DNA of 64,000 nucleotides. Source: Escherichia coli. GTDB taxonomy: Bacteria > Pseudomonadota > Gammaproteobacteria > Enterobacterales > Enterobacteriaceae. Shown here piece by piece: positions 1 to 59,637 of the stretch (positions are counted from its first letter, which is position 1; every line of letters begins with the position of its first letter). The stretch lies in NCBI RefSeq assembly GCF_024502345.1, contig NZ_JALDNN010000001.1; one strand, written 5' to 3'. The position numbers and the translations under genes are program-made. The notes under the pieces were generated by a model. The model ran no database searches and was not told the origin of the DNA. It saw nothing but the letters and a program-made list of their open reading frames with translations.

Positions 1-665
1 TCTACAGCAATACGATGGCGGACAATATTGCTTACCGTGAACAGATTGGTGCGGAGCCACGTAACCGTGGCAAGCCGGTAGATGATATGTTGCTGGTAGA
101 CGAAATGCAGCAATCGCTGGGGCGCAACCCGGATGGTAAGCATCTGATCATTCTGCATACCAAAGGTTCGCACTTTAACTACACCCAGCGTTACCCGCGC
201 AGCTTTGCGCAGTGGAAGCCGGAATGTATTGGTGTTGATAGCGGATGTACCAAAGCGCAGATGATCAACTCCTATGACAACTCGGTGACCTATGTGGATC
301 ACTTTATCTCCAGTGTGATTGATCAGGTTCGCGATAAGAAAGCGATTGTGTTCTACGCAGCTGACCACGGCGAGTCAATTAATGAACGCGAGCACCTGCA
401 CGGCACGCCGCGTGAACTGGCACCGCCGGAGCAGTTCCGCGTACCGATGATGGTCTGGATGTCAGATAAATATCTGGAAAATCCGGTCAATGCGCAGGCG
501 TTTGCGCAGCTGAAAAAAGCAGCCGACATGAAAGTGCCACGCCGTCACGTAGAGCTGTACGACACCATCATGGGTTGTCTTGGCTATACTTCACCGGATG
601 GTGGAATTAACGAAAACAACAACTGGTGTCACATCCCGCAGACAAAAGAGGCAGCGGCTAACTAA
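1..665 (+). CDS. eptB: Kdo2-lipid A phosphoethanolamine transferase, C-terminal part (5' end outside window)
   Basis: Open frame runs from window edge to stop at 663-665; sulfatase-like C-terminus; lies next to proK and dppA as in K-12. Confidence 0.8.
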
Positions 666-756
666 GAGGCCTGCTGACTTTCTCGCCGATCAAAAGGCAT
701 TTTGCTATTAAGGGATTGACGAGGGCGTATCTGCGCAGTAAGATGCGCCCCGCATT

Positions 757-833
<77 letters not shown>

Positions 834-840
834 ATTTAGA

Positions 841-868
841 AAAACCAGTCTACGGGCTGGTTTTTTGC
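841..868 (+). terminator. Rho-independent terminator after proK
   Basis: Hairpin accagtc-tacg-ggctggt followed by TTTTTT. Confidence 0.6.
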
Positions 869-924
869 TTTCTGCGACCTGAAGAGGATGAGAACCTCCG
901 GGGGCAGGGAGGTTCGGCTCGACG

Positions 925-1011
925 TAGGCCTGATAAGACGCGTCAGCGTCGCATCAGGCAACGGCACCGCACTCATTGTCGGATGCAGCGTACCCGTCTT
1001 ATCCGACCTAA
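925..1011. repeat. REP/BIME palindromic units
   Basis: Two REP-like palindromes (gcctgataagacgcgtcagcgtcgcatcaggc and gtcggatgcagcgtacccgtcttatccgacc). Confidence 0.6.
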
Positions 1012-1549
1012 ACGGCAGCACACCACACATTTCCCTGCCAAATTTGCGCCCCATATCTCACAATCCATTAACGGATTTGTGACAGAAACCATTGTCTTTT
1101 TTTATATTTGCTTAAATCTTTTTTTGCGTTACTTATGGCTGGCGCTGGCATTTTCCGCTGTGCGTTTTAGCGTTCATGGTATTAATCGCTCAGATATCCA
1201 CCTTTTCCTCAGATTTTTTCATTAAATGCATAAAACTTAATCACCAAATGTTGCTAAATATTAAGCTGATTGTTCTGGTCATGTTGGAGTAGCACAAATT
1301 TCTCTGCTGCAAATAGCTGTTTGAAGTTTTTTTAATCTTTGTTTGTGGATTCTCACCGTTGGTGTAAATCCCGGTTGGCTGTATTGACGTTTTCACATTC
1401 TGTTGACAGATTGTAGGTCACGAGGGGCATTTTATGGAGGATCCGCACTGTTACACTGATGTTAATTAGTACGGCATCCCCACCTCATAACGTTGACCCG
1501 ACCGGGCAAAAAACAAAAAAGGTCAGGCAGCGACAACCCACTGCAAAGG

Positions 1550-1578
1550 GTTAAAACAACAAACATCACAATTGGAGC
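1550..1578 (+). promoter_or_regulatory. C/A-rich element in dppA 5' UTR, the known GcvB sRNA target type
   Basis: aacaacaaacatcacaattggagcag just upstream of the dppA start; long leader 1230-1584. Confidence 0.45.
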
Positions 1579-1584
1579 AGAATA

Positions 1585-3192
1585 ATGCGTATTTCCTTGA
1601 AAAAGTCAGGGATGCTGAAGCTTGGTCTCAGCCTGGTGGCTATGACCGTCGCAGCAAGTGTTCAGGCTAAAACTCTGGTTTATTGCTCAGAAGGATCTCC
1701 GGAAGGGTTTAACCCGCAGCTGTTTACCTCCGGTACCACCTATGACGCCTCTTCCGTACCGCTTTATAACCGCCTGGTTGAATTTAAAATCGGCACCACC
1801 GAAGTGATCCCGGGCCTCGCTGAAAAGTGGGAAGTCAGCGAAGACGGTAAAACCTATACCTTCCATCTGCGTAAAGGTGTGAAGTGGCACGACAATAAAG
1901 AATTCAAACCGACGCGCGAAATGAATGCCGATGACGTGGTGTTCTCGTTCGATCGTCAGAAAAACGCGCAAAACCCGTACCATAAAGTTTCTGGCGGCAG
2001 CTACGAATACTTCGAAGGCATGGGCTTGCCAGAGCTGATCAGCGAAGTGAAAAAGGTGGACGATAACACCGTTCAGTTTGTGCTGACTCGCCCGGAAGCG
2101 CCGTTCCTCGCTGACCTGGCAATGGACTTCGCCTCTATTCTGTCAAAAGAATATGCTGATGCGATGATGAAAGCCGGTACACCGGAAAAACTGGACCTCA
2201 ACCCAATCGGAACCGGTCCGTTCCAGTTACAGCAGTATCAAAAAGATTCCCGTATCCGCTACAAAGCGTTTGATGGCTACTGGGGCACCAAACCGCAGAT
2301 CGATACGCTGGTTTTCTCTATTACCCCTGACGCTTCCGTGCGTTACGCGAAATTGCAGAAAAATGAATGCCAGGTGATGCCGTACCCGAACCCGGCAGAT
2401 ATCGCCCGCATGAAGCAGGATAAATCTATCAACCTGATGGAAATGCCGGGGCTGAACGTCGGTTATCTCTCGTATAACGTGCAGAAAAAACCACTTGATG
2501 ACGTGAAAGTTCGCCAGGCTCTGACCTACGCGGTGAACAAAGACGCGATCATCAAAGCGGTTTATCAGGGCGCGGGTGTATCAGCGAAAAACCTGATCCC
2601 GCCAACCATGTGGGGCTATAACGACGACGTTCAGGACTACACCTACGATCCTGAAAAAGCGAAAGCCTTGCTGAAAGAAGCGGGTCTGGAAAAAGGTTTC
2701 TCCATCGACCTGTGGGCGATGCCGGTACAACGTCCGTATAACCCGAACGCTCGCCGCATGGCGGAGATGATTCAGGCAGACTGGGCGAAAGTCGGCGTGC
2801 AGGCCAAAATTGTCACCTACGAATGGGGTGAGTACCTCAAGCGTGCGAAAGATGGCGAGCACCAGACGGTAATGATGGGCTGGACTGGCGATAACGGGGA
2901 TCCGGATAACTTCTTCGCCACTCTGTTCAGCTGCGCCGCCTCTGAACAAGGCTCCAACTACTCAAAATGGTGCTACAAACCGTTTGAAGATCTGATTCAA
3001 CCGGCGCGTGCTACCGACGACCATAACAAACGCGTTGAACTGTACAAGCAAGCGCAGGTGGTGATGCACGATCAGGCTCCGGCACTGATCATCGCTCACT
3101 CCACCGTGTTTGAACCGGTACGCAAAGAAGTTAAAGGCTATGTGGTTGATCCATTAGGCAAACATCACTTCGAAAACGTCTCTATCGAATAA
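1585..3192 (+). CDS. dppA: Dipeptide ABC transporter periplasmic binding protein
   Basis: 535-aa ORF with signal peptide and SBP family 5 sequence; first gene of dppABCDF. Confidence 0.96.
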   Translation: MRISLKKSGMLKLGLSLVAMTVAASVQAKTLVYCSEGSPEGFNPQLFTSGTTYDASSVPLYNRLVEFKIGTTEVIPGLAEKWEVSEDGKTYTFHLRKGVKWHDNKEFKPTREMNADDVVFSFDRQKNAQNPYHKVSGGSYEYFEGMGLPELISEVKKVDDNTVQFVLTRPEAPFLADLAMDFASILSKEYADAMMKAGTPEKLDLNPIGTGPFQLQQYQKDSRIRYKAFDGYWGTKPQIDTLVFSITPDASVRYAKLQKNECQVMPYPNPADIARMKQDKSINLMEMPGLNVGYLSYNVQKKPLDDVKVRQALTYAVNKDAIIKAVYQGAGVSAKNLIPPTMWGYNDDVQDYTYDPEKAKALLKEAGLEKGFSIDLWAMPVQRPYNPNARRMAEMIQADWAKVGVQAKIVTYEWGEYLKRAKDGEHQTVMMGWTGDNGDPDNFFATLFSCAASEQGSNYSKWCYKPFEDLIQPARATDDHNKRVELYKQAQVVMHDQAPALIIAHSTVFEPVRKEVKGYVVDPLGKHHFENVSIE

Positions 3193-3342
3193 TTAAAAGC
3201 CATACCCGGTGGTGCTGTGCCTCTGCGTGCAGCGCCATCCGGCAGCAATACTTCATTCCCTGCCCGACCTGGGCGGGAATTGATTTGTGAGCAATACAGA
3301 CACGCAGTTCCAGGCTGCGGGTCACTACAGAGAATCCGGGTT

Positions 3343-4362
3343 ATGTTGCAGTTTATTCTCCGACGTTTGGGACTCGTCATCCCCACGTTTATCGGTATTA
3401 CCCTTCTCACATTTGCCTTTGTCCACATGATCCCGGGCGATCCGGTGATGATCATGGCGGGCGAACGTGGGATCTCCCCAGAGCGTCACGCGCAGTTGCT
3501 GGCTGAACTCGGCTTAGATAAACCGATGTGGCAGCAGTATCTCCATTACATTTGGGGCGTTATGCATGGCGATCTAGGCATTTCAATGAAAAGCCGCATC
3601 CCGGTTTGGGAAGAGTTCGTGCCGCGCTTCCAGGCCACGCTGGAACTTGGTGTCTGCGCGATGATTTTTGCTACGGCAGTCGGTATTCCGGTTGGTGTGC
3701 TGGCTGCGGTTAAACGCGGTTCCATTTTCGATCACACAGCGGTTGGCCTGGCGCTGACAGGTTATTCAATGCCTATCTTCTGGTGGGGAATGATGCTGAT
3801 CATGCTGGTTTCGGTGCACTGGAACCTGACGCCCGTCTCCGGTCGCGTGAGCGATATGGTGTTCCTCGATGATTCCAATCCGTTAACCGGTTTTATGCTG
3901 ATCGACACCGCCATCTGGGGTGAAGACGGTAACTTTATCGATGCCATCGCCCATATGATCTTGCCCGCCATTGTGCTGGGTACTATTCCGCTGGCGGTCA
4001 TTGTGCGTATGACACGCTCCTCGATGCTGGAAGTGCTGGGTGAAGATTACATCCGCACCGCGCGCGCCAAAGGGTTGACCCGCCTTAGGGTGATTATCGT
4101 CCATGCGCTGCGTAACGCGATGCTGCCGGTAGTGACCGTTATCGGCCTCCAGGTGGGAACATTGCTGGCGGGGGCGATTCTGACCGAAACCATCTTCTCG
4201 TGGCCTGGTCTGGGGCGCTGGTTGATTGACGCGCTGCAACGCCGCGATTATCCGGTGGTTCAGGGCGGCGTATTGCTGGTGGCAACGATGATTATCCTCG
4301 TCAACCTGCTGGTCGATCTGCTGTACGGCGTGGTGAACCCGCGTATTCGTCATAAGAAGTAA
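3343..4362 (+). CDS. dppB: Dipeptide ABC transporter permease
   Basis: 339 aa from ATG 3343 (MLQFILRRLG...); the ORF track's upstream in-frame extension lacks permease sequence. Confidence 0.93.
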   Translation: MLQFILRRLGLVIPTFIGITLLTFAFVHMIPGDPVMIMAGERGISPERHAQLLAELGLDKPMWQQYLHYIWGVMHGDLGISMKSRIPVWEEFVPRFQATLELGVCAMIFATAVGIPVGVLAAVKRGSIFDHTAVGLALTGYSMPIFWWGMMLIMLVSVHWNLTPVSGRVSDMVFLDDSNPLTGFMLIDTAIWGEDGNFIDAIAHMILPAIVLGTIPLAVIVRMTRSSMLEVLGEDYIRTARAKGLTRLRVIIVHALRNAMLPVVTVIGLQVGTLLAGAILTETIFSWPGLGRWLIDALQRRDYPVVQGGVLLVATMIILVNLLVDLLYGVVNPRIRHKK

Positions 4363-4371
4363 GGGGACATC

Positions 4372-5274
4372 ATGTCACAGGTTACTGAAAATAAAGTGAT
4401 TAGCGCACCGGTGCCGATGACCCCGTTACAGGAGTTCTGGCACTATTTTAAACGCAACAAAGGCGCGGTCGTCGGGCTGGTTTACGTCGTCATCGTGCTG
4501 TTTATCGCGATCTTTGCCAACTGGATTGCTCCCTATAACCCGGCGGAACAATTCCGCGATGCGCTGCTTGCCCCGCCCGCCTGGCAGGAAGGCGGCAGCA
4601 TGGCGCACTTGCTGGGCACCGATGACGTAGGGCGTGATGTGCTGTCGCGCCTGATGTACGGCGCGCGTTTATCGCTGCTGGTTGGCTGTCTGGTGGTGGT
4701 GTTATCGCTGATTATGGGCGTTATTCTCGGCCTGATCGCCGGTTACTTTGGCGGCCTGGTCGATAACATCATCATGCGCGTGGTCGATATCATGCTGGCG
4801 CTGCCAAGTCTGCTGTTGGCACTGGTGCTGGTGGCGATGTTCGGCCCGTCGATTGGTAACGCCGCGCTGGCGCTGACCTTTGTTGCCTTGCCGCACTATG
4901 TGCGCTTAACCCGCGCCGCCGTGCTGGTGGAAGTTAACCGCGATTACGTTACCGCGTCTCGCGTGGCAGGTGCCGGGGCGATGCGTCAGATGTTTATTAA
5001 CATCTTCCCGAACTGCCTTGCGCCTCTGATTGTTCAGGCGTCGCTCGGTTTCTCTAACGCCATTCTCGATATGGCTGCTCTTGGTTTCCTCGGCATGGGG
5101 GCGCAGCCGCCAACGCCGGAGTGGGGCACCATGCTCTCCGACGTGTTGCAGTTCGCGCAAAGCGCCTGGTGGGTCGTGACCTTCCCGGGTCTGGCGATCC
5201 TGCTGACGGTGCTGGCATTTAACCTGATGGGTGACGGTCTGCGTGACGCGCTCGATCCCAAACTGAAGCAGTAA
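4372..5274 (+). CDS. dppC: Dipeptide ABC transporter permease
   Basis: 300-aa polytopic permease. Confidence 0.95.
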
Positions 5275-5284
5275 GAGGTTCGAA

Positions 5285-6268
5285 ATGGCGTTATTAAATG
5301 TAGATAAATTATCGGTGCATTTCGGCGACGAAAGCGCACCGTTCCGCGCCGTAGACCGCATCAGCTACAGCGTAAAACAGGGCGAAGTGGTCGGGATTGT
5401 GGGTGAGTCCGGCTCTGGTAAATCGGTCAGTTCGCTGGCGATTATAGGGCTGATTGATTATCCGGGCCGCGTAATGGCGGAAAAGCTGGAGTTTAACGGT
5501 CAGGATTTACAGCGTATCTCAGAAAAAGAGCGCCGCAACCTGGTGGGTGCCGAAGTGGCGATGATCTTCCAGGACCCGATGACCAGCCTTAACCCGTGCT
5601 ACACAGTGGGTTTCCAGATCATGGAAGCGATTAAGGTGCATCAGGGCGGTAATAAGAGCACTCGTCGTCAGCGGGCGATTGACTTGTTGAATCAGGTCGG
5701 TATTCCCGATCCGGCTTCGCGTCTGGATGTTTACCCGCATCAGCTTTCCGGCGGCATGAGCCAGCGCGTGATGATTGCGATGGCCATTGCCTGTCGGCCA
5801 AAACTGCTGATTGCCGATGAACCAACCACTGCGCTGGACGTGACCATTCAGGCGCAAATCATTGAACTACTGCTGGAGCTACAGCAGAAAGAGAACATGG
5901 CGCTGGTGTTAATTACCCATGACCTGGCGCTGGTGGCGGAAGCGGCACATAAAATCATCGTGATGTATGCCGGTCAGGTGGTGGAAACGGGCGATGCGCA
6001 CGCCATCTTCCATGCGCCGCGTCACCCGTATACTCAGGCATTGCTGCGTGCGCTGCCGGAATTTGCTCAGGACAAAGAACGTCTGGCATCGTTGCCTGGC
6101 GTTGTTCCCGGCAAGTACGACCGCCCGAACGGCTGCCTGCTTAACCCGCGCTGCCCCTATGCCACTGACAGATGTCGCGCTGAAGAACCGGCGCTGAATA
6201 TGCTCGCTGACGGGCGTCAGTCCAAATGCCATTACCCACTTGATGATGCCGGGAGGCCCACACTATGA
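5285..6268 (+). CDS. dppD: Dipeptide ABC transporter ATP-binding protein
   Basis: 327 aa, Walker [12 protein letters not shown] signature LSGGMSQR. Confidence 0.95.
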
Positions 6269-7269
6269 GTACGCAAGAGGCCACCTCGCAACAACCGCTG
6301 TTGCAGGCTATCGACCTGAAAAAACATTATCCGGTGAAGAAAGGCATGTTCGCGCCGGAACGTCTGGTTAAAGCGCTGGATGGCGTTTCGTTTAACCTTG
6401 AACGTGGCAAAACGCTGGCGGTAGTAGGTGAATCTGGCTGCGGTAAATCGACCCTCGGTCGGTTGTTGACGATGATTGAAACACCTACCGGCGGTGAACT
6501 GTATTACCAGGGGCAGGATCTGCTCAAGCACGATCCGCAGGAGCAGAAACTGCGTCGGCAGAAAATCCAGATCGTCTTCCAGAACCCCTATGGTTCGCTG
6601 AATCCGCGTAAAAAAGTCGGGCAAATTCTTGAAGAGCCGCTGCTTATTAACACCAGCTTAAGCAAAGAACAGCGTCGGGAAAAAGCCCTGTCGATGATGG
6701 CGAAAGTCGGCCTGAAAACCGAGCACTATGACCGCTATCCGCATATGTTCTCCGGCGGACAACGTCAGCGTATCGCTATTGCCCGTGGTCTGATGCTCGA
6801 CCCGGACGTGGTGATTGCCGATGAACCGGTCTCCGCGCTGGACGTCTCGGTGCGTGCACAGGTGCTCAACCTGATGATGGATTTGCAGCAGGAACTGGGG
6901 CTTTCTTATGTCTTCATCTCCCACGACCTGTCGGTGGTGGAGCACATTGCTGATGAAGTGATGGTGATGTACCTGGGCCGCTGCGTGGAGAAGGGAACGA
7001 AGGACCAAATCTTCAATAACCCGCGCCATCCGTACACTCAGGCGCTACTTTCCGCGACGCCGCGCCTGAATCCGGACGATCGCCGCGAGCGCATCAAACT
7101 CACCGGTGAGCTGCCAAGCCCGCTGAATCCACCGCCGGGCTGCGCGTTTAACGCCCGCTGTCGTCGGCGCTTCGGCCCCTGCACCCAGTTGCAGCCGCAG
7201 CTAAAAGACTACGGCGGTCAACTGGTAGCTTGTTTTGCTGTTGATCAGGATGAAAATCCGCAGCGTTAA
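6265..7269 (+). CDS. dppF: Dipeptide ABC transporter ATP-binding protein
   Basis: 334 aa, Walker [10 protein letters not shown], signature [12 protein letters not shown] overlap with dppD. Confidence 0.95.
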
Positions 7270-7274
7270 CTCAC

Positions 7275-7300
7275 AAAACCGGGGCCATGCGCTCCGGTTT
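7275..7300. terminator. Bidirectional hairpin between convergent dppF and yhjV
   Basis: aaaaccggggccatgcgctccggttt inverted repeat. Confidence 0.45.
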
Positions 7301-8359
7301 ACTCAATCAGCTTCAACAGTGGCGACAAGCATAGCAAAATGCCGTAAAGCAGAATTAGCCAGGCTTTAAATCCGCGAAGTTTTTCCAGTTGTGCGACTTT
7401 ATAGATCAGGAAAAACGGAATGAGGCACGACACAATGCCATATAACGGGCTTCCCAACTGAAAGAACACCAGCACCGATACACGAAACGAAACCCAAATC
7501 GTCAACGTAATGACGATAAAAGCGCAGATCGCCAGAGTCAGCATGCGTGAGTTAATTTTCTTGGTATCAATAATTCGGCTTAACAGATTGAGAATAATGC
7601 CTTTAATAGCCTCGTGGAAACCGAGATAAATGCCAAAGAATGCGGTCAGTACGGCAAAGATATTCAGCACCGTAGAGGTGATATGAATGATATGTCCAGG
7701 GATCACCTGCGCGGCCAGTGCCAGTGCCGAGATATTTTGTTCAAAGGCAGAAACGGCTTCTTCGTGGCTAATTGAGAAGGTAAACGAAAAGGCAAAAAAC
7801 AGGATCACCGCGATGAGCGTGATATAACTAATTCGATGGGTACGCAGCGCGAGCCGGGTTGCCAGTACTTTATCTGCTTCCCGTTTACGATAGGCAATAT
7901 TCATTGGGTTAAGTACCTGAATAAATACCGCAGAAAAGAAGCAAAATGGAATGGTAAGCAGGACATCGCGGAAAAAGACGGAGGCTTGCGGGAAGGCGGT
8001 TATATTGGCGAAATTCCAGTGCGGGATCATCGCAAAACCGAACACGACAATAATCCCTACTTTGACCACCACCATTGGCCCAGAAATCTTAAACAGTAAT
8101 CGTTCACCACCAGACGCAATCGCTACCAGTACGGCGAAAATAGCGACTTTATAAAGTAGAGATTGTGAAAGATCGGCATCGGTTAAACCGAAGGTTTTCA
8201 GGTACGAGGCGCTGTCGAAAACCACGGAGAGAGAGTAGATAAAAATCCCGTGGATAATCATCAAAAAGTAGATAACCCCGAGGAAAATTCCCCAGTTCTT
8301 CCCCAGGTAATGACTGATAATATCGGTGTAGTCATTACAGGAATCGCTTTCAGAAAGGG
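7299..8359 (-). pseudogene. yhjV: Putative HAAAP-family amino-acid transporter, 5'-truncated by IS1
   Basis: Polytopic membrane ORF; reading frame stays open upstream of the first in-frame start up to the IS1 left end at 8360; K-12 YhjV is ~423 aa from memory, so ~70 N-terminal codons are missing. Confidence 0.7.
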
Positions 8360-8414
8360 GGTGATGCTGCCAACTTACTGATTTAGTGTATGATGGTGTT
8401 TTTGAGGTGCTCCA

Positions 8415-8690
8415 GTGGCTTCTGTTTCTATCAGCTGTCCCTCCTGTTCAGCTACTGACGGGGTGGTGCGTAACGGCAAAAGCACCGCCGGACATCAGCG
8501 CTATCTCTGCTCTCACTGCCGTAAAACATGGCAACTGCAGTTCACTTACACCGCTTCTCAACCCGGTACGCACCAGAAAATCATTGATATGGCCATGAAT
8601 GGCGTTGGATGCCGGGCAACCGCCCGCATTATGGGCGTTGGCCTCAACACGATTTTCCGCCATTTAAAAAACTCAGGCCGCAGTCGGTAA
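8415..8690 (+). CDS. insA: IS1 InsA
   Basis: 91-aa ORF with C-x2-C...C-x2-C zinc-finger N-terminus. Confidence 0.93.
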
Positions 8691-9112
8691 CCTCGCGCAT
8701 ACAGCCGGGCAGTGACGTCATCGTCTGCGCGGAAATGGACGAACAGTGGGGATACGTCGGGGCTAAATCGCGCCAGCGCTGGCTGTTTTACGCGTATGAC
8801 AGGCTCCGGAAGACGGTTGTTGCGCACGTATTCGGTGAACGCACTATGGCGACGCTGGGGCGTCTTATGAGCCTGCTGTCACCCTTTGACGTGGTGATAT
8901 GGATGACGGATGGCTGGCCGCTGTATGAATCCCGCCTGAAGGGAAAGCTGCACGTAATCAGCAAGCGATATACGCAGCGAATTGAGCGGCATAACCTGAA
9001 TCTGAGGCAGCACCTGGCACGGCTGGGACGGAAGTCGCTGTCGTTCTCAAAATCGGTGGAGCTGCATGACAAAGTCATCGGGCATTATCTGAACATAAAA
9101 CACTATCAATAA
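8609..9112 (+). CDS. insB: IS1 InsB reading frame (expressed as InsAB' by -1 frameshift)
   Basis: 167-aa ORF in -1 frame relative to insA; A6C slippery run at 8666-8672. Confidence 0.88.
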
Positions 9113-9127
9113 GTTGGAGTCATTACC

Positions 9128-10013
9128 GGATTCCGGTGCCAGCGTGGCGGTCGGCTGGCGAAATGACGTCTGGAGCTGGGATATCGGTACCACGCCGATG
9201 GGCTTCAACGTGGTGGATGTGGTCGGCGGCATCAGTTACAGCGATGATATCGGGCCGCTGGGTTACACCGTTAACGCCCACCGTCGGCCCATCTCCAGTT
9301 CTTTGCTGGCCTTTGGTGGGCAAAAAGACTCCCCGAGCAATACCGGGAAAAAATGGGGTGGCGTACGTGCCGACGGTGTGGGGCTAAGTCTGAGCTACGA
9401 TAAAGGTGAAGCAAATGGCGTCTGGGCATCGCTTAGTGGCGACCAGTTAACCGGTAAAAATGTCGAAGATAACTGGCGCGTGCGCTGGATGACGGGCTAT
9501 TACTATAAGGTCATTAACCAGAACAATCGCCGCGTCACAATCGGCCTGAACAACATGATCTGGCATTACGACAAAGATCTGAGTGGTTACTCACTCGGTC
9601 AGGGCGGTTACTACAGTCCGCAGGAATACCTGTCGTTTGCCATACCGGTGATGTGGCGGGAGCGCACGGAAAACTGGTCGTGGGAGCTGGGGGCGTCTGG
9701 CTCGTGGTCGCATTCACGCACCAAAACCATGCCGCGTTATCCGCTGATGAATCTGATCCCGACCGACTGGCAGGAAGAAGCTGCGCGGCAATCCAACGAT
9801 GGCGGCAGCAGTCAGGGCTTCGGCTATACGGCGCGGGCATTACTTGAACGACGTGTTACTTCCAACTGGTTTGTCGGCACGGCAATTGATATCCAGCAGG
9901 CGAAAGATTACGCCCCCAGCCATTTCCTGCTCTACGTACGTTATTCCGCCGCCGGATGGCAGGGTGACATGGATTTACCGCCGCAGCCGCTGATACCTTA
10001 CGCCGACTGGTAA
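9128..10013 (+). pseudogene. bcsC: Cellulose synthase outer-membrane subunit BcsC, 3'-terminal remnant only
   Basis: ~295 C-terminal codons in frame immediately after the IS1 right end; the rest of bcsC and the upstream bcs genes are absent. Confidence 0.8.
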
Positions 10014-10094
10014 GTTTTCAGATAGCGCCTCTCTTAATGCCGCTGCGATCGGGTATACTCGGGCGGCAATCTGGGATTTCCGGGGGGAGACAAT

Positions 10095-12083
10095 TTGCGC
10101 GTAAGTCGCTCGTTAACAATCAAGCAGATGGCAATGGTGGCAGCCGTTGTCCTGGTGTTCGTTTTTATTTTTTGCACCGTTTTGCTGTTCCATCTGGTCC
10201 AGCAGAATCGCTATAACACGGCTACGCAACTGGAAAGCATTGCTCGCTCTGTCCGCGAACCTTTATCTTCAGCCATTTTGAAAGGTGATATTCCCGAAGC
10301 GGAAGCTATTCTTGCCAGCATTAAACCGGCAGGCGTGGTCAGCCGTGCCGATGTAGTGCTGCCCAACCAGTTCCAGGCGCTGCGTAAAAGTTTTATTCCA
10401 GAGCGCCCGGTGCCGGTAATGGTTACTCGCCTGTTTGAGCTACCGGTTCAAATCTCGCTGGGCGTTTACTCGCTCGAACGTCCGGCAAATCCGCAGCCAA
10501 TTGCCTATCTGGTGCTACAGGCGGATTCCTTCCGTATGTATAAGTTCGTGATGAGCACCCTCTCAACGTTAGTGACCATTTACTTACTTTTGTCGTTAAT
10601 ATTGACGGTGGCGATTAGCTGGTGCATTAACCGCCTGATTTTGCATCCGTTACGCAATATTGCTCGCGAACTTAACGCCATCCCAGCCCAGGAGCTTGTT
10701 GGTCACCAACTGGCATTACCGCGTCTGCATCAGGATGATGAAATCGGTATGTTGGTGCGCAGTTACAACCTCAACCAGCAATTGCTGCAGCGCCATTATG
10801 AAGAACAGAACGAAAATGCGATGCGCTTCCCAGTGTCGGATTTGCCGAACAAAGCCTTGCTGATGGAGATGCTGGAGCAGGTTGTCGCGCGTAAACAAAC
10901 CACCGCGCTGATGATCATCACCTGTGAAACCCTGCGTGATACTGCGGGTGTGCTGAAAGAGGCGCAACGAGAAATTCTGCTGCTGACGCTGGTGGAAAAA
11001 CTCAAATCGGTACTGTCGCCACGTATGATCCTCGCGCAGATTAGCGGTTATGACTTTGCTGTCATTGCCAATGGTGTACAGGAACCGTGGCACGCAATCA
11101 CCTTAGGTCAGCAAGTGCTCACTATCATGAGCGAGCGCCTGCCGATTGAACGTATTCAACTCCGTCCGCACTGTAGCATTGGCGTGGCGATGTTCTACGG
11201 CGATCTCACCGCCGAACAGCTTTACAGTCGCGCTATTTCTGCGGCATTTACCGCTCGCCATAAAGGCAAGAATCAGATTCAGTTCTTTGATCCGCAGCAG
11301 ATGGAAGCCGCCCAGAAGCGGTTGACGGAAGAGAGCGATATCCTTAATGCACTGGAAAATCATCAGTTTGCTATTTGGTTACAGCCACAGGTCGAGATGA
11401 CCAGCGGTAAACTGGTCAGTGCGGAAGTGTTACTGCGTATCCAGCAACCGGATGGCAGTTGGGACCTGCCGGATGGCTTAATCGAGCGCATTGAGTGCTG
11501 TGGGCTGATGGTTACCGTCGGTCACTGGGTGCTGGAAGAGTCCTGTCGATTGCTTGCAGCCTGGCAAGAGCGCGGCATTATGCTGCCCTTGTCGGTAAAC
11601 CTCTCTGCGCTGCAACTGATGCACCCGAATATGGTGGCGGATATGCTGGAACTGTTAACCCGCTATCGCATTCAGCCGGGAACACTGATTCTGGAAGTGA
11701 CAGAAAGCCGACGTATTGACGACCCTCATGCTGCGGTGGCAATCCTCCGTCCGCTGCGCAATGCTGGAGTTCGGGTGGCGCTGGATGATTTCGGCATGGG
11801 CTACGCAGGGCTGCGTCAGCTGCAGCATATGAAATCGTTGCCAATCGACGTTCTGAAAATCGACAAAATGTTTGTTGAAGGCTTGCCGGAAGATAGCAGC
11901 ATGATTGCTGCAATTATCATGCTGGCGCAGAGCCTGAACTTACAAATGATTGCCGAAGGCGTGGAGACTGAAGCACAACGCGACTGGCTGGCAAAAGCGG
12001 GCGTTGGTATTGCCCAGGGCTTCCTTTTTGCTCGTCCACTCCCTATTGAAATCTTCGAAGAGAGTTACCTGGAAGAAAAGTAG
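10095..12083 (+). CDS. pdeK: c-di-GMP phosphodiesterase, HAMP-GGDEF(degenerate)-EAL membrane protein
   Basis: 662-aa ORF with N-terminal TM segments and C-terminal EAL domain; start ambiguous (TTG at 10095, ATG at 10128). Confidence 0.85.
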
Positions 12084-19427: not shown

Positions 19428-19600
19428 AATTGCCGGATGTCTGACATCCGGCAATTAAACAGATTTAGATTGTTGGCAAAGTGTGCTTTGTTCATGCCGG
19501 ATGCGGCGTTAACGCCTTATCCGGCCTACAAATCCTTGTGAATTCAATATATTGTATGGAAATTCAGGCCTGATAAGCGTAGCGCATCAGGCTTTTCACA
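19428..19600. repeat. Terminator hairpin plus REP elements
   Basis: gccggatgtctgacatccggc hairpin, then REP-like gccggatgcggcgttaacgccttatccggcctac and gcctgataagcgtagcgcatcaggc. Confidence 0.6.
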
Positions 19601-58121: not shown

Positions 58122-58173
58122 GCTATTTTTCCTAAAGATGAAAATTATTAGAGTCGCATTAAAAATGAGCTAA

Positions 58174-59368
<1,195 letters not shown>

Positions 59369-59637
59369 CTAATTTTGATAGTGGCTATCTTGTGATTATT
59401 TTCTAATGAGCCCGTGAACTGAACCCCCCATGCTTAATATAAGGTGGAGGGAAAGGTGATTGAAAACTCACCCAGTGGGCTGATCTTTATAAAATATGAA
59501 CAGGTTGAAAAAAAAACAGTAACTTTGCTGTTTTTTATACTTAACCACTATGCATTAATGCTGCGTTATTTCATTCTACCTAAGAAAAACCAGCGTTACG
59601 CAAATGGTCAACGCTGGTTTTATCCGGTACGTTGCAA

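Follow-up and report, generated by a model that had tools for sequence, protein, structure and literature searches.

The locus between dppF and pdeK raises the question of how a single IS1 element came to lie between the distal parts of two genes, yhjV and bcsC, and what happened to the cellulose genes that separate them in K-12. We followed this locus in the whole 64-kb stretch of Escherichia coli DNA available for analysis (the window, within which all positions below are given), comparing it with K-12 MG1655, with close relatives of the strain, and with 5,426 complete RefSeq E. coli genomes. The same comparison was used to re-examine an initial annotation of the locus, in which it was described as an IS1-associated deletion of the bcs cluster.

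The IS1 element and the gene remnants beside it

The sequence, its ORFs, and a profile match identify the element at the scar as a complete IS1 of 768 bp, located on the plus strand at positions 8360-9127. It begins with the left inverted repeat IRL, GGTGATGCTGCCAACTTACTGAT (8360-8382; an exact match that occurs once in the window), and closes with IRR, the IS1 right end (9105-9127). Between the repeats lie an intact insA (8415-8690, an ORF of 91 aa) and an intact insB frame (8609-9112, an ORF of 167 aa), together with an intact A6C frameshift motif, AAAAAAC, at 8666-8672; a profile search matched both ORFs to the NCBIfam model NF033558 (IS1 transposase). The structural features of an IS1 are present: a length of about 768 bp, imperfect inverted repeats of about 23 bp, and the insA/insB' -1 frameshift signal. 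Scar IS1 and IS1A of K-12 differ at 7 of 768 positions, which corresponds to 99.1% identity. The 64-kb window holds only two IS elements.

The element had been described initially as lacking a target-site duplication, and its exact boundaries bear this out: the 9 bp adjoining its left end, CAGAAAGGG, are unlike the 9 bp adjoining its right end, GGATTCCGG. Two simple IS1 insertions served as controls, and both are flanked by perfect 9-bp duplications, GGGAATTTT for an insertion in yhjV (L008) and ATCATCCTG for an insertion near gadA (L036). The missing duplication at the scar is therefore meaningful. The unmatched flanks count against a simple insertion and not against the identity of the element as IS1; they are what a deletion during or after the insertion would leave.

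Both breakpoints were placed by BLAST against the K-12 MG1655 chromosome (NC_000913.3). On the left, positions 3202-8359 of the window correspond to K-12 positions 3,705,931-3,700,774, and the breakpoint is located at K-12 3,700,774, which is nucleotide 212 of yhjV. On the right, the window from 9127/8 onward corresponds to K-12 3,686,586/5 downward; here the breakpoint is ambiguous by 1 nt, as the final C of IS1 is the same as the K-12 base. Apart from this ambiguity at the bcsC side, the breakpoints are nucleotide-exact in comparison with both K-12 and the close relatives.

The yhjV remnant delimited by BLAST against K-12 comprises 1,061 nt on the minus strand (7299..8359) and retains codons 71-423 and the stop codon. 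The 5' loss of 211 nt, that is, 70 codons and 1 nt, agrees with the initial annotation, according to which about 70 N-terminal codons were missing from a frame that abuts the left end of IS1 and is still open; the reading frame indeed continues open across the junction into the element. The translated remnant differs from K-12 YhjV by one residue. Its first start codons, TTG/ATG at 8264/8261, are located at about codon 103, and a possible product would have at most 321 aa, being about 103 residues short. In the serine/threonine transporter subfamily model TIGR00814, the remnant aligns to positions 60-397 of 397, with a score that is under the curated cut-off because of the truncation. The left neighbour, dppF (6265..7269, plus strand), is an intact ORF encoding 334 aa.

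The right end of IS1 abuts the last 886 nt of bcsC (9128..10013, plus strand; BLAST against K-12), encoding residues 864-1157 and the stop. These 294 codons and stop match the approximately 295 codons claimed originally. In the BcsC profile NF008520, which has 1157 positions, the match runs from 864 to 1157; the remnant represents part of the C-terminal beta-barrel, with the signal peptide and the TPR region absent; a 271-aa sub-ORF within it carries the Pfam domain BCSC_C. The yhjV and bcsC remnants show no decay.

The right neighbour, pdeK/hmsP (10095..12083, plus strand, 662 aa), is intact, as judged from its ORF and the K-12 annotation; the protein collection lists the identical sequence under the name HmsP. 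The start of this gene now lies 968 bp downstream of the right end of IS1. A promoter and terminator consensus scan of positions 7200-10300 gave no signal above shuffled expectation, except for the known inward IS1 promoter region. With no outward promoter or terminator above chance, we make no claim on effects on pdeK expression.

Extent and age of the loss

Relative to K-12, 14,188 bp are absent between the two breakpoints. The relative L027 carries two extra ldr units compared with K-12, amounting to 966 bp; for an ancestor with three ldr copies, like L027, the loss would come to about 15,154 bp. On either count, the figure of roughly 17 kb given in the initial annotation was too high. The missing K-12 interval comprises ldrD, rdlD, bcsG, bcsF, bcsE, bcsR (yhjR), bcsQ, bcsA, bcsB, bcsZ, and codons 1-863, or three quarters, of bcsC. 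Thus, all that remains in the window of the cellulose cluster, bcsRQABZC and bcsEFG, is codons 864-1157 of bcsC; bcsA, bcsB, and the accessory genes are gone. The 35-aa ldr ORF and the antisense rdl of the yhjV-bcsG locus have disappeared with the deleted interval. We presume that other Ldr/Rdl loci are located elsewhere in the genome; K-12 also has ldrABC. A BLAST search found no match to any of the missing 14.2 kb elsewhere in the 64-kb window.

The remnants are the distal parts of both genes, and near-identical relatives as well as K-12 have these parts in the same order and orientation. Collinear remnants around a single IS1 constitute the layout of a deletion and therefore rule out an inversion, in line with the initial reading of the locus.

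The relatives were examined on both sides of the scar. On the left, draft genomes that share the same rare DppB allele are 99.82-99.96% identical to the window over positions 1-8359, and an intact yhjV of 423 aa was called in seven of the eight. Beyond yhjV, the stretches fetched from these drafts contain one to three ldr copies (Ldr_toxin ORFs) and most of bcsG, bcsF, bcsE, and bcsR. On the right, L045-L047 are 99.96-99.99% identical to the window over 16 kb, and bcsC, bcsZ, and bcsB are all full-length in them. In the fetched stretches, relatives at 99.93-99.99% identity on both flanks, with 2-5 differences per 8-16 kb, therefore retain yhjV, ldr, bcsG/F/E/R, and bcsB/Z/C, while the same interval is absent from the window; the proposed removal of the bcs cluster and ldrD/rdlD at this locus thus holds. 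The relatives also preserve both target sites undisturbed: ...CAGAAAGGG|TTTTTAAATAAATG... in yhjV, with a local G+C content of 36%, and ...GCAGCCAGTC|GGATTCCGGTG... in bcsC, with 68% G+C. An intact locus in relatives that are only a few bases per 10 kb away indicates that the deletion postdates the split from them, and the loss is thus recent and strain-specific.

The DppF allele of the strain is unique in the protein collection, the exact protein being found on one NCBI E. coli contig and one Logan contig. The latter, the independently assembled short-read contig L024 (ERR14375843), agrees with positions 933-8359 of the window at 100% identity and breaks off precisely at the edge of IS1. Over 24 kb of the right flank, no complete E. 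coli genome surpasses about 99.3% identity, and a Shigella origin was considered for this reason; it was rejected, as the proteins are labelled E. coli, there are near-identical E. coli drafts, and only two IS elements occur in the window.

Comparable scars in E. coli and the probable route to the deletion

Searches with the two junctions, as queries of 201 and 161 bp, gave no hit across either of them among the 5,426 complete RefSeq E. coli genomes. An analogous bcs deletion, with IS1 at the scar in the same orientation as here and without a duplication, is present in three of these genomes. GN25 (NZ_CP139196.1) has the layout yhjV'-IS1-'bcsC, with 567 nt of yhjV and 2,991 nt of bcsC remaining. 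In O9:H10 Res13-Lact-PEB20-37-A (NZ_CP062853.1), an intact yhjV is followed by IS1 and 'bcsB, all of yhjV being kept, and in WP7-S17-ESBL-04 (NZ_AP022177.1), with the layout bcsE'-IS1-'bcsC, bcsC is reduced to its last 522 nt. As in the window, part or all of the bcs cluster has been lost between yhjV and bcsC in each of the three, whereas the breakpoint positions differ from those described here.

Other matches were set aside. Exact matches to the 320-aa YhjV and 271-aa BcsC sub-ORFs of the remnants mostly represent unrelated events, namely, frameshifted yhjV or bcsC, IS1 inserted at a different position in yhjV, and an IS-free deletion between bcsA and yhjV. Plasmid matches that combine IS1 and bcsC do not correspond to this junction, for bcsC is full-length in them and IS1 is located downstream.

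The bcsC side of the scar has a counterpart in another sample. In L022, a Logan contig of 1,918 bp (SRR16526992), the right end of IS1 lies at the identical bcsC nucleotide, and the bcsC-side flank shows 8 differences from the window in 1,146 positions. To the left of this IS1, only 2 nt are visible, and they read TG rather than GG. A hot spot for IS1, an event independent of that in the window, and a contig assembled from mixed strains are all conceivable explanations of L022.

We consider it highly probable that the scar in the window is a real IS1-associated deletion. The same end product is expected of three routes: an adjacent deletion, recombination of two direct IS1 copies, and a single-step IS movement accompanied by deletion. 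If the deletion is real, the most likely route in our estimate, at somewhat better than even confidence, is an adjacent deletion made by one IS1 through intramolecular transposition. This route is favoured because the branch is very short and fewer events are needed on it, and because no relative has IS1 at either site. It would comprise the following steps: (i) an IS1 copy inserts at what is now one of the two junctions, (ii) one end of this IS1 attacks a second site, in bcsC, on the same chromosome in an intramolecular replicative transposition, (iii) the DNA between the two sites is lost as a circle, along with one copy of the target duplication, and (iv) a single IS1 is left between unrelated flanks. 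IS1 prefers AT-rich targets, and the AT-rich site in yhjV (36% G+C, ...CAGAAAGGG|TTTTTAAATAAAT...) would for this reason be the more likely site of the primary insertion.

Deletions that arise by intramolecular transposition and leave an element with no direct repeats have been described as typical of IS1/Tn9 (PMC9330008), and an absent duplication is usually due to an adjacent deletion or to recombination between IS copies (PMC11708052). The scar shares with the IS1/Tn9 adjacent deletions one retained IS1, no direct repeats, contiguous DNA lost from one side, and collinear flanks, the collinearity extending here to both K-12 and the relatives, with the interval between the flanks missing. We see no difference in kind from these deletions; the end product does not tell which insertion was primary or in which direction the deletion proceeded. 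A precursor with IS1 and its duplication at either junction was found neither among L025-L032 and L045-L047 nor among the 5,426 complete genomes.

The main competitor of the adjacent deletion is a route in which IS1 inserted twice in direct orientation, in yhjV and in bcsC, and RecA-dependent homologous recombination between the two copies then removed the interval and produced a single hybrid IS1 whose flanks do not match. This route gives the identical product, a single IS1 with no duplication and collinear flanks, and separate IS1 insertions in yhjV and in bcsC are known from other E. coli, L008 included. The L022 contig, with its IS1 end at the same bcsC nucleotide, would fit a stand-alone insertion at that site, but a simple insertion there, with its 9-bp duplication, should show GG to the left of the IS1 rather than TG. 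Two independent insertions and a recombination would also have to be accommodated in a lineage only about 0.01-0.07% from relatives with an intact locus, and none of the fetched relatives has IS1 at the yhjV or the bcsC site. We therefore regard the two-insertion route as possible but distinctly less probable than the adjacent deletion.

An assembly artefact, in which two IS1 copies flank an intact bcs cluster and the assembler collapsed the repeat, has to be considered because the join passes through a multi-copy repeat; L024, which stops at the edge of IS1, does not span it. We consider such a collapse very improbable: the 4.74-Mb contig of the protein set suggests a long-read assembly, in which 768-bp repeats rarely collapse, the same architecture is seen in three finished genomes, and a collapse would require both IS1 copies to be in direct orientation.

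Also very improbable is a transfer of the bcs segment to another place in the genome or to a plasmid in a strain that is still cellulose-positive. In its favour, the window covers only 64 kb of the genome, and a complete bcsC beside IS1 is found on some E. coli plasmids. Against it, no piece of the deleted DNA is present within the window, bcsA occupies a median of one place and at most two places per genome and is never on a plasmid in the 5,426 complete E. coli, and the collinear remnants rule out a simple inversion.

Predicted consequences for cellulose production

If the adjacent deletion or any of the equivalent routes removed the cluster, several functions are predicted to be lost with it. 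With no BcsA or BcsB, no cellulose is expected, and with no BcsG or BcsE, no addition of phosphoethanolamine to cellulose; the strain should thus make neither cellulose nor phosphoethanolamine-cellulose. The single-copy and never plasmid-borne state of bcsA in the complete genomes makes the cellulose-negative phenotype a sound prediction. The strain should also be without this Ldr/Rdl locus and without a functional YhjV permease. Absence of cellulose genes is not confined to this strain: among the same 5,426 complete genomes, bcsA is unmatched in 89 and has coverage below 80% in 114, and about 2% have no intact bcsA.

K-12 is likewise cellulose-negative through a lesion in the bcs cluster, bcsQ being annotated as a pseudogene in MG1655. 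However, K-12 retains all bcs genes, and its cellulose defect can be repaired by one base change, whereas the genes of this strain are physically gone.

Convergent loss of function in cellulose genes has been described across E. coli, Shigella, and Salmonella, and the mutations named in the relevant part of that study are frameshifts and a single-base deletion in bcsA (PMC10881479). A text search of the paper found no mention of insertion sequences. The lineages described there and the present strain have in common a cellulose-negative genotype that has arisen independently. They differ in that, in contrast to the small mutations named in that part of the study, an IS removes the whole cluster here, and in that a link to virulence is not known for this strain. 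A full-text literature search for IS-associated bcs deletions in E. coli found none among its top-ranked results.

The junction base shared with L022, together with the three other bcs deletions that have a same-orientation IS1 at the scar, led us to consider a broader idea, namely that the bcsC nucleotide is a recurrent IS1 target or that the cellulose-null allele spreads between lineages, and that IS1 could drive a convergent, possibly selected, loss of cellulose. We regard this idea as speculative and rather unlikely.

The deletion is an ordinary type of mutation that recurs in E. coli, and it raises no new mechanism and no new question. It provides a further example both of the removal of accessory loci by IS1 without a duplication and of the repeated loss of bcs genes in E. 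coli. For the strain itself, the loss of cellulose and phosphoethanolamine-cellulose should alter the biofilm (rdar) morphotype, and, by the published work on ST95 (PMC10881479), the response of the host to the strain could change as well.

IS1 and bcsC in other E. coli sequences

In the Logan contig L022 (SRR16526992, 1-1918), the right end of IS1 stands at exactly the same bcsC nucleotide as in the window (IS1, 8360-9127; bcsC remnant, 9128-10013). Over 1,146 positions, the bcsC flank of this contig has 8 differences from that of the window; to the left of its IS1 stand the two bases TG, not GG. The junction may mark an IS1 hot spot or have arisen independently, or the contig may combine more than one strain. 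IS1 together with most of the bcsC tail is also matched by numerous plasmids from E. coli, with sizes of about 90-160 kb. The single plasmid inspected among them, pHI1B-o111 (NZ_CP066840.1, 1307-5784), carries a full-length bcsC of the chromosomal type, with a bcsZ fragment upstream and IS1 just downstream, an arrangement suggesting that the plasmid has picked up chromosomal DNA beside an insertion sequence.

Other lesions of the bcs genes

In the Logan contig L010 (SRR26082427, 4046-6963), from another E. coli, a truncated bcsA (625 aa) lies 78 bp from the same 320-aa ORF that is called within the yhjV remnant of the window (7299-8359), and no insertion sequence was called between the two. 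This strain appears to have lost bcsRQ, bcsEFG and ldr by a deletion that involved no insertion sequence. In several unrelated E. coli assemblies (L012-L014 and L018-L021), bcsC is split into ORFs of ~873-877 aa and 271 aa. Here a premature stop or a frameshift has arisen repeatedly near codon 875, separate from the IS1 event of the window.

Differences from K-12 in gadA, yhiS and the dppA-yhjV region

Compared with K-12, the window gadA (28115-29517, plus strand) contains two extra base pairs, CG, near 28452-28453, which shift the reading frame past approximately codon 112. The gene is intact (466 aa) in the closest relative, L035, which is 99.987% identical; in contig L038 it is split into 336 and 137 aa, like the window gene. 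No IS5 is present at the site (42459-42464) where one disrupts the K-12 yhiS, and therefore yhiS is an intact 407-aa ORF (41984-43207). An IS5 copy is located between yhiM and yhiN, at 58170-59377, which corresponds to about 3,636,158-61 in K-12.

Between dppA and dppB, at about 3202-3205, the window lacks approximately 153 bp of DNA that K-12 has there. Since an 86%-similar copy lies between yhjG and yhjE (19467-19596), the missing DNA looks like a dispersed repeat, which we take to be a putative REP/BIME-like element. The dppB-to-yhjV segment (3202-8359) is 96.96% identical to K-12, compared with 98.8-99.0% for the flanking segments, although YhjV itself differs from the K-12 protein by one residue. 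This lower nucleotide identity suggests that the segment may be a recombinant or lineage-specific block.
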